Source: Clostridiaceae bacterium
GTDB lineage: Bacteria; Bacillota; Clostridia; Acetivibrionales; DUMB01
Assembly (NCBI GenBank): GCA_012840535.1
Contig: DULF01000095.1
Span: forward strand, 9,069-73,068
Direction: 5' to 3'
DNA length: 64,000 nt
Under the pieces are notes generated by a model, which saw only the letters and a program-made list of their open reading frames with translations, did not search any database and was not told the DNA's origin. This document shows positions 20,800-23,991 of the stretch, one piece after another (the stretch's first letter is position 1; the number at the start of each line of letters is the position of its first letter). The translations under genes and the position numbers were made by a program.

Positions 20800-21861
20800 T
20801 CATTTTATGTATACCTGTTGCTTTTGGTGCCACCTGTTCCATTCAATGGTGCGAGCCAGGCCTTCACGGAAAGGTTTGAACGGCGGAAGAGGGAATTCGG
20901 TGCTTACTTTTGTAATATCAAGCTTTACCAGTTTTGGAGAAACCTTGATGTTCTGCAAGTCTTCTTTATTTGGGATTTCCTGAGACAATGCGCTTCCAGT
21001 CAGCAGACATATTTCTTCTGCTAGGGCGCGAATGCTTATGCTGTCCTTTCCTCCCACATTATATACAAAGTCTTTCCCGTAGAGCATTATATAAAGCAGC
21101 ATCAGCACGCTGTCGGCAATGTAGCAGAATGTCCTTACCTTGCTTCCGTCATCCAGCATCGTAATTTTTTTTTCATAAAGAGCCTGCCGCAGGAAATGAG
21201 CCAAGACCCTCTCATCCTTCAAACCGATGCCGGGTCCATAGGTCATGGAAATCCGCGCGATTTTTGCGTTAACCCCTTCAAAGTTTCTATAGGCAAAGCA
21301 CAAAGTTTCACCCATGCGTTTCGACTCAGCGTAGATCGCCCGTACATCCACTGGAGAACACAAGCCGGGGTAATCTTCGCTTGTGGGAACATGTTTTTCA
21401 TCGGGTTCGCCATATACTTCCGAGGAACTTAAAAACAAAAAAACGGCGTTGTCTTTTTTTGCTTTTTTAAGCAGCCTTTCGGTTACTGTTGTATTTAGGT
21501 GAATGGTCTCCAAATAGTTTTGAATAAATTTTTTCGGCTGGGCATAGGTCGCTCCATGGATAATATAGTCAGCCTTCACTTCAAAGCAATCGCAATCCGG
21601 CTTGATCAGATCCGTTGCAAAGAAGGCATAGCGGTCCTTGAAAATATCCTGCAGGTGGCTTCCGGGAGGACTTTTGCTGACAGCGGCAATGTTGATCCCG
21701 GCATTTTTGACGGTATTTGCAAGGTGGAGCATATATATCACATACGTTCCAATGAGCCCGTTTGCTCCTGTAATATAAACTGTTTTATCCCTTAGCGGGG
21801 TAAGATCGATTTTTTCAATATATTCAAGGCAATCTTGCTCAATAATCCTGTCCATAACCAT
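20800..21861 (-). CDS. NAD-dependent epimerase/dehydratase (extended SDR, nucleotide-sugar modifying; UXS/4,6-dehydratase-like)
   Basis: It contains VYITGANGLIGTYV (GxxGxxG), SSSEVYG and YAESKRMGE (YxxxK). Confidence 0.75.
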   Translation of the reverse strand: MVMDRIIEQDCLEYIEKIDLTPLRDKTVYITGANGLIGTYVIYMLHLANTVKNAGINIAAVSKSPPGSHLQDIFKDRYAFFATDLIKPDCDCFEVKADYIIHGATYAQPKKFIQNYLETIHLNTTVTERLLKKAKKDNAVFLFLSSSEVYGEPDEKHVPTSEDYPGLCSPVDVRAIYAESKRMGETLCFAYRNFEGVNAKIARISMTYGPGIGLKDERVLAHFLRQALYEKKITMLDDGSKVRTFCYIADSVLMLLYIMLYGKDFVYNVGGKDSISIRALAEEICLLTGSALSQEIPNKEDLQNIKVSPKLVKLDITKVSTEFPLPPFKPFREGLARTIEWNRWHQKQQVYIK

Positions 21862-21885
21862 CCTCTTTCCTTTTTTACAATATTT

Positions 21886-22929
21886 TTATTCTTTTACCAA
21901 CTTCACCGCTTCGGTGCAAATGTCCTCCGCAGTGGGATAAAAAGCTTTTTCCAGTACATCGCTGGTGGGTGTCGGCGTATCCGGGCAGCATACCCGTTTT
22001 ACAGGCTTCTTCAGCAGATGGAATGCTTTTTCAGCAGCAACGGCGGCTATTTCCGAAGCTACGCTTCCTGTTTTGCAGCCGGTGTCGGCAATCAGAAGCC
22101 TTCCGGTTTTTTCGACGGATTCCACAAGAATCTTTTCGTCGAAGGGCTTTAATGTCCGAAGATCTACAACCTCTGCAGATATGCCTGCTTGCTGAAGCTT
22201 TTCAGCTGCCTTCAATGCCTCCACAAGCATATAGGACACTGCCACAATGGTAATATCTTCTCCCCTGCGGTGAATAACGCCTCTGCCGATGGGAATGGAA
22301 TAAAGCTCTTCAGGAACATATCCGGTTGTCTTGTACAGCCATCTGTGTTCTACAAACAGAACAGGGCTGTTATCTATGATGGATGATATCATTAACCCTT
22401 TGGCGTCGTAAGGAGTGGCAGGGGCAACAATTTTAAGACCAGGAACATTCATCAGCATTCCCTGGATGCACTGTGAATGCTGAGCTCCGGATCCCCATCC
22501 CCTGGCGCTTATTGTTCTTACTACCAAGGGAACCTTTACCTGTCCGCCGAACATATAACACCATTTGGATGCGTGATTTACCAGCTGGTCAAAGGAAAGC
22601 AACAGAAAATCCATCCGCGCGTGAATGAGAATCGGCCTTAAGCCTGCCATTGCAGCTCCAGCGGCTATTCCGGTCAAAGAATTCTCCGCTATCGGAGTAT
22701 CGAATACCCTGTTTGCGCCGTATTTCTCTTTCAATCCCTTGGTGGTTCCAAAAACGCCCGCCACATCATCCACGCCTTCGCCCATGATAAACACTCTCGG
22801 GTCCCTTGCCAGCGATTGATCCATGGCTTCATGCAGCGCATCCCTGTAAGAGAGTATCCGATTACCCGTAAAATCGCCGGATATAAAAAAGTTATCAAGT
22901 TTTTCTACCTGAACTGTCGTCCAAGGCAT
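21886..22929 (-). CDS. TPP-dependent 2-oxoacid dehydrogenase E1 component, beta subunit-like
   Basis: It contains FIMGEGVDD..GVFGTTKGL, DTPIAENSLTGIAAGAAMAG and a transketolase C-terminal region. A GGAAAGGAGG RBS is present. Confidence 0.8.
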   Translation of the reverse strand: MPWTTVQVEKLDNFFISGDFTGNRILSYRDALHEAMDQSLARDPRVFIMGEGVDDVAGVFGTTKGLKEKYGANRVFDTPIAENSLTGIAAGAAMAGLRPILIHARMDFLLLSFDQLVNHASKWCYMFGGQVKVPLVVRTISARGWGSGAQHSQCIQGMLMNVPGLKIVAPATPYDAKGLMISSIIDNSPVLFVEHRWLYKTTGYVPEELYSIPIGRGVIHRRGEDITIVAVSYMLVEALKAAEKLQQAGISAEVVDLRTLKPFDEKILVESVEKTGRLLIADTGCKTGSVASEIAAVAAEKAFHLLKKPVKRVCCPDTPTPTSDVLEKAFYPTAEDICTEAVKLVKE

Positions 22930-23025
22930 GAAAACATCCTCCTTTCCAATAGACAGTACGAGTCATTTTCATCGCCAGTACATATCATTCCTGTCGTCAG
23001 AAAACCATTCTGCCGTCTCCTGTTT

Positions 23026-23991
23026 CTAGTCTGCATACACAAAATCCAGCAGTTCATCAGGTGAGGGTTTTGGAGAGTTCTGCGCAAAACTGAACGCCTC
23101 TTCTATCAAACCGTATATTTCCTCATCAATGTTTTTAATAAGCTCATCATTTAAAACTCCCATATTCTTTAAATATTCCGAGAACCGTTTTATCGGGCAT
23201 TTTGAAACCCAATAGTCATATTCCTCTTTCGGCCTGTAGCCTTCCCCTACATCATCCACCGTTCCGATATGCCCTTTCCACCTGTAAGTCAGACATTCAA
23301 TAAGGGTGGGGCCTTCGCCGTTCCGGCATCTTAAAATGGCTTTTTCGGCATAATCTGAAACTTCCAGCACATCATTTCCATCAATCTTATAGCCCAGCAT
23401 TCCGTAATTTTGCGCCCATTTGTAAATGTTGTCGTCCACCTGCCGTGCCAGCTGGTGCGAGTTGATGGCATAAAAATTGTTTTCACACACATATACTACA
23501 GGCAGCTTTTTCAGCGCGGCAAAATTCAGGCTTTCATGAAAGGTGCCTTCATCAGCAGCGCCGTCGCCGAAAAATACAACAGTTACCCTGTCATTTCCCT
23601 GAAGCTTTGACGCCAGAGCTGTGCCTGTTCCGAGCGGAATATTACCCCCGACAATGGCAGAAGAGCCAAGTATGCCCACATCCGGATCGACAAGATGCAT
23701 CGACCCGCCTCTGCCATACGCACATCCTGTTTTCCTCAGGTACAATTCAGCGATCATTTTTTTTATGTCGCCGCCTTTTGCAATATATTGGGCATGACTT
23801 CGGTGGGTGCCGAAAATGTAATCATCCTTACGAAGATGTATGCAGGCGCCTGCTGCCACCGCTTCCTGCCCGATGGACAGATGGATAGGCGTTTTGATTT
23901 CGTCATACTTGTATTCGTCATTGATTCTTTGTTCAATCAGGCGAATAAGACGCATGATTCTATACATTTCAATCAATTTGCTTTTTTCCAT
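23026..23991 (-). CDS. TPP-dependent 2-oxoacid dehydrogenase E1 component, alpha subunit-like
   Basis: It contains the TPP-binding motif [28 protein letters not shown], and YRWKGH. Confidence 0.8.
   Translation of the reverse strand: [321 protein letters not shown]

Follow-up and report, generated by a model that had tools for sequence, protein, structure and literature searches.

The 64,000-nt stretch of a Clostridiaceae genome analysed here (assembly GCA_012840535.1, contig DULF01000095.1, positions 9,069 to 73,068; hereafter the window) contains a GDP-sugar gene island in which positions 20800–23991 are filled exactly by three minus-strand open reading frames (ORFs): an E1 alpha-like and an E1 beta-like subunit of a thiamine diphosphate (ThDP) enzyme, and a short-chain dehydrogenase/reductase (SDR) of the extended type. 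Our results demonstrate that this E1 pair is an orphan, without E2 and E3 partners in the window, in ~30 syntenic loci and, as far as annotation names tell, in the whole genome of Clostridium stercorarium (Thermoclostridium stercorarium). In the anaerobes that bear this cassette, the pair is almost certainly a sugar-tailoring enzyme and not a member of central metabolism. By analogy with known enzymes, and with moderate confidence, we assign it as a ThDP carboligase of the alphaKADH2 type, which would branch GDP-4-keto-6-deoxymannose, with the SDR reducing the branch and a glycosyltransferase (GT) transferring the resulting sugar.

The E1 pair, its missing partners and its cassette

E1 alpha (321 aa; 23026–23991, minus strand) matches the Pfam family E1_dh (E=1.3e-76) and carries the ThDP-binding motif GDGAADEG...CENN, E1 beta (347 aa; 21886–22929, minus) matches Transket_pyr (E=2.3e-33) and Transketolase_C (E=5.4e-40), and the SDR (353 aa; 20800–21861, minus) matches Epimerase (E=3.2e-37), all of these values being far beyond chance. 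The top PDB matches are human PDHA1 for E1 alpha (E=1.9e-57) and 1um9_B for E1 beta (E=2e-75). Compared with the orthologs of ~30 Clostridia, E1 alpha displays 64–92% identity and E1 beta 71–91%, a conservation on par with that of Gmd and Fcl and above that of ManC and the GTs of the same cassette. The catalytic motifs of both chains are fully or nearly invariant in 34–38 orthologs, i.e., GDG, CENN, GGSMH and KGH in E1 alpha and, in E1 beta, QHSQ and the PIAEN motif with its activating Glu. Judging from these sequences, the pair is an intact ThDP enzyme under strong constraint. Readings as a phosphonopyruvate decarboxylase or a transketolase were ruled out by the Pfam and NCBIfam family assignments. 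Note that E1 beta has an N-terminal extension of ~25 residues, the first of which (MPWTT) are nearly invariant among orthologs, and that this extension falls outside the region aligned to solved E1 beta chains of pyruvate dehydrogenase (PDH) and 2-oxo acid dehydrogenase. An exact-sequence lookup returned no record for the E1 alpha sequence of the window.

When the island and every larger ORF of the 64-kb window were scanned against Pfam, no 2-oxoacid_dh, lipoyl or Pyr_redox_dim protein was detected, and the E2 motif DHRxxDG and the E3 motif GGTCxxxGC gave 0 matches in 732 ORFs from the window and 40 related loci; at every locus examined, the 10 kb on either side of the pair are free of E2 and E3. 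A Pyr_redox_2 protein at 44908–46176 was rejected as an E3, being without the dimerisation domain and paired with a DAO/BFD protein. For a complete genome, the gene table of C. stercorarium DSM8532 (PMC4102724, supplement 2) lists only Clst_1520 and Clst_1521 as ‘pyruvate dehydrogenase’, and these are the orthologs of the window pair (81% identity for E1 alpha); the same table, checked by annotation names, holds no dihydrolipo-, lipoamide, lipoyl, acetoin or 2-oxo entry. The initial annotation, which had described an E1 alpha with its ThDP motif and an E1 beta without E2/E3 in the island, is therefore borne out by the ORFs, the Pfam assignments and the motif scans. Partners encoded elsewhere, which it had named as the case that would speak against its proposal, were encountered neither in the C. 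stercorarium table (by name) nor in the 41 loci (by motif).

The genomic setting is equally constant. The pair had been placed between GT-like genes, next to an extended SDR and in a GDP-sugar context, and this agrees with what we found: the flanking genes are FUT8/NodZ/O-FucT-like, and manC, a gmd equivalog and an fcl-like gene lie in the island. Moreover, the pair is locked in a cassette of 12 genes (a ten-gene operon plus fcl and gmd, which are convergent or divergent), whose full set occurs in 21 of 30 Clostridia species genomes, the others being cut by contig ends or having a shorter version. Colinear cassettes were observed in C. stercorarium, Pseudoclostridium thermosuccinogenes, Ruminiclostridium josui, papyrosolvens and hungatei, a contig named Desulfitobacterium sp. 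and many metagenome-assembled genomes, the nearest named relatives being P. thermosuccinogenes (SDR 90% identical) and C. stercorarium. The chromosomal sites differ, i.e., spoIIE/spoVT in the window, lexA/LysM in C. stercorarium, leuS in R. josui, gatCAB in locus L005 and fba/pfk in P. thermosuccinogenes, and the cassette thus behaves as a self-contained module, with gmd as a member at nearly all loci. In addition, a five-gene sub-module (ManC-GT_A-E1a-E1b-SDR, where GT_A is the first GT of the operon) stands alone in loci L023 (7918–13404) and L027, where it is preceded by a sigma-K-type promoter of its own and where unrelated genes, an ABC transporter and a radical SAM gene, come next. This makes GT_A and the SDR the closest companions of the E1 pair. 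An IS240-family transposase is found between fcl and gmd in one P. thermosuccinogenes genome (CP021850; L041, 17175–18605) and is absent in another strain (L042).

It is hardly credible, in our view, that we are dealing with the usual E1 of a pyruvate or acetoin dehydrogenase, with E2 and E3 encoded elsewhere and an incidental position in the island, but several observations do speak for it and so against a sugar-tailoring role. The pair shares with PdhAB/AcoAB the fold, the ThDP motif, the activating Glu and the catalytic His, with 30–40% identity to solved E1s of PDH and branched-chain 2-oxo acid dehydrogenase; the NCBIfam models nearest to E1 alpha are the PDH y-type and AcoA-like ones, and E1 beta passes the cutoff of the PDH E1-beta subfamily (PRK09212; 333.1 bits vs 321). 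Since the lipoyl-transfer histidines are retained (KGH in E1 alpha and QHSQ in E1 beta), E2-dependent chemistry is compatible with the sequences. C. stercorarium also encodes lipoate synthase and ligase (LipA and LipB), and its genome paper counts ‘Pdh’ in the text as detected in the proteome and includes a ‘Pdh complex’, from pyruvate to acetyl-CoA, in its metabolic map (PMC4102724). However, E1 alpha remains below the PDH equivalog cutoffs (336.6 bits vs 393.85 for PDH_E1_alph_y, TIGR03182, and 235.7 vs 411.35 for TIGR03181), the pair holds the same place in a glycan cassette across ~30 species and accompanies the cassette from site to site, and the absence of partners described above is combined with a sporulation-type promoter (see below). 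The hosts are fermentative anaerobes using pyruvate:ferredoxin oxidoreductase, and in the proteome of vegetative C. stercorarium the cassette proteins (Clst_1512-1523) displayed 0% peptide coverage (one 3%), their neighbouring genes being covered (PMC4102724). As the only PDH genes tabulated are the cassette pair, with 0% coverage, the ‘Pdh complex’ of the map is probably an annotation artefact carried forward. Annotations and at least this one published map treat the pair as a pyruvate dehydrogenase complex; given its almost certain role in sugar tailoring, carbon-flux models that use it as such would be wrong.

Proposed chemistry of the pair and of the adjacent SDR

E1-like heterodimers called alphaKADH2 (AviB1/B2, Plm8/9, AlmD and KbDH) form an established ThDP enzyme class, whose members attach a C2 unit taken from pyruvate at position C3 or C4 of a keto-sugar, leading to a tertiary alpha-hydroxy ketone (PMC12247030). 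The precedent of E1-like branching pairs, as cited in the initial annotation, is in fact firmer than stated there, since the class has been named and KbDH-alpha/beta acts in vitro with pyruvate as the sole donor and with ketone acceptors that include sugar analogues (PMC12247030). Feeding and knock-out evidence exists for the aldgamycin pair and genetic evidence for avilamycin and paulomycin (PMC12247030, PMC4802897, PMC4753412); enzymes of this class are predicted from ~120 clusters, and the branch ketone is often reduced after the C2 addition (PMC12247030, PMC4802897, PMC4753412, PMC10338323). Like AviB1/AviB2, EvdU5/EvdS3, Pau11/12 (i.e., Plm8/9), the aldgamycin pair and KbDH-alpha/beta, the pair of the window is a two-gene E1-like ThDP enzyme without E2/E3, with separate genes, an intact ThDP motif and intact catalytic residues, and it lies among nucleotide-sugar and GT genes beside an enzyme that makes a keto-sugar, here Gmd. 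In contrast to the known cases, which come from antibiotic clusters of actinomycetes and work on deoxysugars carried by dTDP or UDP, the cassette is found in anaerobic spore-forming Clostridium, with a GDP carrier, fucosyltransferase-like GTs, a UXS-derived SDR instead of an aldo-keto reductase, and a probable spore-surface glycan under sigma-K.

The same chemistry, a ThDP-bound acyl anion derived from a 2-oxo acid and added to C4 of a nucleoside diphosphate (NDP)-4-keto-6-deoxyhexose, followed by an NAD(P)H-dependent reduction of the branch, is proposed for YerE/YerF (yersiniose A), ErwE, MygE and MMAR_2332, whose product ends up in a surface polysaccharide (PMC9306805). YerE differs as a single-chain flavoprotein of the acetolactate synthase type (decarboxylase superfamily) that acts on a CDP-3,6-dideoxy sugar, and its architecture is not homologous to that of E1 alpha/beta.

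On this basis, the following pathway may be proposed, in line with the C2 branching of the Gmd product that the initial annotation had suggested and that our results support in part. ManC and Gmd would provide GDP-4-keto-6-deoxy-D-mannose as the acceptor, and the E1 pair would decarboxylate pyruvate, the putative donor, to hydroxyethylidene-ThDP and add the acetyl-anion equivalent to the C4 carbonyl, giving GDP-4-C-acetyl-6-deoxyhexose, a tertiary alcohol. Subsequently, the SDR, with its NADP-type motif, would reduce the side-chain carbonyl to a 1-hydroxyethyl group, and one of the four fucosyltransferase-like GTs would transfer the branched sugar, alongside GDP-L-fucose from Fcl. GT_A would be the best candidate transferase, as it is kept with the pair and the SDR in the five-gene sub-module. 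The expected sugar would be a non-3-deoxy relative of yersiniose. If true, an acyl-branched sugar would for the first time be known in GDP-linked form, and an alphaKADH2-type branching enzyme would for the first time serve a cell-surface glycan instead of an actinomycete antibiotic. The E1-type ThDP branching enzymes would then reach beyond actinomycete secondary metabolism to primary glycans of the Firmicute surface, and beyond dTDP/UDP sugars to GDP sugars. The kind of enzyme is already known, and to a specialist it is the setting that would come as a surprise, not the chemistry: what appears new is that the carrier is GDP, that the GTs are of the fucosyltransferase type, that the partner is UXS-derived and NADP-type, that the host is an anaerobic Firmicute and that the surface glycan is likely specific to sporulation. 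Such enzymes, thermophilic versions included, would also be useful biocatalysts for tertiary alcohols.

The reductive step depends on how the SDR is read. Its start lies 24 nt past the E1 beta stop, with its own ribosome-binding site, and it displays the motifs TGANGLIG, SSSEVYG and YAESK. Its top PDB sequence match is human UXS1 (hUXS1; E=4e-39, identity ~30%), but phmmer left the N-terminal residues 1–75 unaligned to UXS. At the end of strand beta2, all 31 orthologs have A(V/I)S(K/R), where hUXS1 has the NAD-type VVDN, and the acidic residue that ends beta2 in the NAD+-type Rossmann motif of the UXS group is therefore not found. When an AF2 model of the SDR (pLDDT 81.7) was used as a Foldseek query, hUXS1 was listed first, followed by 8v4h, an NADP-dependent reductase of Campylobacter jejuni that forms CDP-glucitol, and the latter displayed the highest TM-score and is the closest full-length neighbour of the model (TMq 0.81), at ~23% identity. 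Because of the NADP-type beta2, the unaligned N-terminus, the likeness to 8v4h and the lack of a hexuronate dehydrogenase in the cassette, we favour a UXS-derived NADPH-dependent ketoreductase, as predicted from sequence and model.

The SDR could alternatively be an NDP-hexuronate 4-oxidase/6-decarboxylase, similar to AviE2/EvdS6, and produce an NDP-4-keto-pentose that the E1 pair would acetylate, as in the formation of eurekanate. Indeed, the SDR has in common with UXS, ArnA and EvdS6 the UXS fold and all six active-site residues of hUXS1 (Thr118, Ser119, Glu120, Tyr147, Lys151 and Arg277; PMC3438964), which are invariant in 30 orthologs: Thr118 (replaced by Ser), Ser119 and Glu120 in SSSEVYG, Tyr147 and Lys151 in YAESK, and Arg277 in GSKVRTF. 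The E1-like pairs of orthosomycin clusters (EvdU5/EvdS3 and AviB1/B2) are accompanied by just such a decarboxylase (AviE2/EvdS6), their acceptor being UDP-4-keto-pentose (PMC10338323), and C. stercorarium has one unlinked ‘nucleotide sugar dehydrogenase’ elsewhere in its genome. However, UXS, ArnA and EvdS6 use NAD+, and 8v4g, which comes from C. jejuni and is NADP-dependent, has the motif ITGANGxIG in common with the SDR, together with a basic residue that follows beta2 and the Glu and Arg residues. The Glu/Arg pair, and hence the UXS residue set, is thus not exclusive to decarboxylases, and the resemblance to hUXS1 remains low in identity. Furthermore, no 6-dehydrogenase that would supply an NDP-hexuronate was found in the cassette at any locus, and the cassette contains manC, gmd and fcl (the sub-module loci being without nearby gmd/fcl) and GTs of the fucosyltransferase type only. 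Taken with these observations, a decarboxylase role for the SDR is improbable.

A further possibility, unlikely but of some weight, is that the pair belongs to the glycan pathway with another chemistry or substrate, e.g., a DXS-like extension on an aldehyde, an already-transferred sugar as the acceptor or a 2-oxo acid other than pyruvate, the SDR being then an independent 4-reductase/epimerase that makes a second GDP-6-deoxyhexose. Synteny binds the pair to the cassette without specifying its reaction, the SDR, as an extended nucleotide-sugar SDR, could act at ring C4, YerE-like enzymes accept C4–C8 donors (PMC9306805), and the sub-module loci L023 and L027 have no gmd close by. By contrast, all alphaKADH2 enzymes, characterised or proposed, add a pyruvate-derived C2 unit to a keto-sugar (PMC12247030), the cassette contains no aldolase or other donor-making gene while Gmd already supplies a ketone, and a C4-reductase for the Gmd product would resemble Rmd/GMER, to which the SDR is only weakly matched (6x3b, E=5e-10). 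Coming back to the branching of GDP-4-keto-6-deoxymannose, the following points weigh against it: (i) the six UXS residues and the unlinked dehydrogenase mentioned above, (ii) the sub-module loci L023 and L027, in which no gmd or fcl was seen within 10 kb, (iii) the assignment of the pair to the AviB1/B2 and KbDH type, which was made from architecture and gene context, and (iv) the known branch ketoreductase Pau7, which is an aldo-keto reductase and not an SDR (PMC4753412), so that a Pau7-type role for the SDR was ruled out.

A sporulation-type promoter and a candidate spore-surface target

Upstream of manC, the first gene of the operon, we identified a sigma-K-type promoter, ACCTTATTCATTTAATTTACATAATATA (AC-N17-CATAnnnTA; 26213–26240, minus strand), the call being a phylogenetically conserved match to the consensus. 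The element AC-N17-CATAA[A/T]ATA occurs upstream of manC in 27 of 34 loci, compared with 1.4% of shuffled upstream regions, and it persists where the spacer has diverged. Its conservation implies, as a prediction from sequence, that all 10 genes of the operon are expressed late in the mother cell, and it backs the involvement of spores that the initial annotation had supposed. The strict sigma-K consensus was found upstream of gmd at no locus; there, close relatives have GTAACATTACATAATCAGTTTGCATATTA in common, which includes a CATA-type −10 element and differs from the strict consensus. A scan for terminators and sigma-70 promoters displayed no enrichment over shuffles, the terminator after fucI (see below) being the sole useful one, and no riboswitch (e.g., TPP) or other known RNA was found in the island, two tRNAs lying elsewhere in the window.

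Genes for a flippase, a polymerase, an ABC exporter or a priming transferase are absent from the cassette. A protein of 623 aa with CBM96/DNRLRE, BclA_C and beta-helix regions (Pfam CBM96 and BclA_C; 11850–13721, minus) adjoins it in three genomes and at three different sites, i.e., in the window, in C. stercorarium (L001, 20240–20966) and in P. thermosuccinogenes (L041, 20305–21050); it has neither a signal peptide nor collagen-like repeats. This protein is a candidate spore-surface fibre, partner or glycosylation target. The promoter, the lack of export machinery, the adjacent BclA_C protein and the 0% coverage in vegetative cells, taken together, lead us to favour a late glycosylation of a spore-surface target in the mother-cell cytoplasm. 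In the Bacillus cereus group, BclA-type exosporium glycosylation takes place in the mother-cell cytoplasm, with rhamnose and anthrose made via dTDP pathways and without export machinery. The cassette resembles that system in having a BclA_C-domain protein beside its sugar genes and in its probable cytoplasmic glycosylation with an unusual deoxysugar, and differs from it in the GDP-fucose-type pathway and the absence of collagen-like repeats.

Assembly of the branched sugar would thus take place late in sporulation under sigma-K, in the mother-cell cytoplasm, onto a spore-surface target that may be the neighbouring BclA_C/beta-helix protein. More broadly, we tentatively suggest that many cellulolytic or thermophilic Clostridia decorate their spores, under sigma-K, with a GDP-derived 4-C-acetyl- or 4-C-(1-hydroxyethyl)-6-deoxyhexose, by means of a PDH-E1-like carboligase and a UXS-derived NADPH reductase. 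Against this generalisation, we know of no branched sugar reported from clostridial spores. Among the papers that could be searched, nothing relevant to the cassette was found with the terms exosporium/fucose/Clostridium or SigK/GDP-mannose/fucosyltransferase. The compact and apparently sporulation-specific glycosylation cassette, with its 12–13 genes, is common to ~30 or more species of Clostridia, and its glycan may help spores to adhere, affect their hydrophobicity or be recognised by phages or hosts.

Other genes of the cassette and distant relatives of the pair

The operon has the order manC > GT_A > E1a > E1b > SDR > GT_B > GT_C > GT_D > APH-like kinase > DivIVA-like. The manC gene (mannose-1-phosphate guanylyltransferase; 25025–26113, minus) is supported by Pfam NTP_transferase, by a ManC beta-helix and by NCBIfam GMP_PMI (3.7e-79), and it likely starts at the ATG at 26113, the ORF as listed beginning with a TTG at 26134. 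GT_A (24011–25000, minus) is FUT8/NodZ-like (Pfam FUT8_N_cat 4.1e-8 and NodZ 7.2e-8), and GT_B (19571–20842, minus), GT_C (18490–19596, minus) and GT_D (17571–18530, minus) belong to the fucosyltransferase superfamily through matches to O-FucT/FUT8_N_cat/NodZ; the latter three are colinear at orthologous loci with 53–91% identity. When the longest ORFs are considered, GT_D/GT_C overlap by 41 nt, GT_C/GT_B by 26 nt and GT_B/SDR by 43 nt, which suggests translational coupling, the start codons being uncertain.

The last two genes of the operon encode a kinase of the APH/choline-kinase fold (Pfam APH 3.3e-20; 16587–17519, minus) and a DivIVA-domain protein (Pfam DivIVA 1.7e-33; 16065–16553, minus), both conserved in position and fixed members of the cassette in all species. 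These proteins might, for instance, serve as a scaffold, direct localisation or phosphorylate a glycan or a protein, and one of them could even be the acceptor. On the plus strand, gmd (GDP-mannose 4,6-dehydratase; 14026–15054) is an NCBIfam gmd equivalog (563 bits vs a cutoff of 415) and likely starts at the ATG at 14026 (MNKALITG), as indicated by an ortholog-conserved ribosome-binding site and ATG, the listed ORF beginning with a TTG at 13951. It is followed by the fcl-like GDP-L-fucose synthase gene (15067–16002, plus), with 486 bits for GDPFucSynFcl (cutoff 500; E=3.6e-146).

Beyond the cassette, the nearest relatives of the pair (48–53% identity) are found in genomes of Nitrospirota, Thermodesulfobacteriota and Planctomycetota, again in a nucleotide-sugar context (L037, 5310–15784; L038, 4393–16429; L039, 4805–11798). 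The module at these three loci is conserved but differs from the clostridial cassette, and includes an HldE-like kinase/nucleotidyltransferase, a SIS isomerase, an SDR, two DegT aminotransferases, a GT2, a radical SAM/SPASM protein and a B12-radical SAM protein, and no E2 or E3 was found in these sugar loci. Here, E1-type branching enzymes may have another use, one based on heptoses.

Finally, an L-fucose isomerase gene (fucI equivalog) and a LacI-type regulator gene (26474–29551, minus) abut the island in the genome of the window only. A terminator at 26364–26382 parts them from manC, and catabolic and anabolic fucose genes are thereby located side by side.

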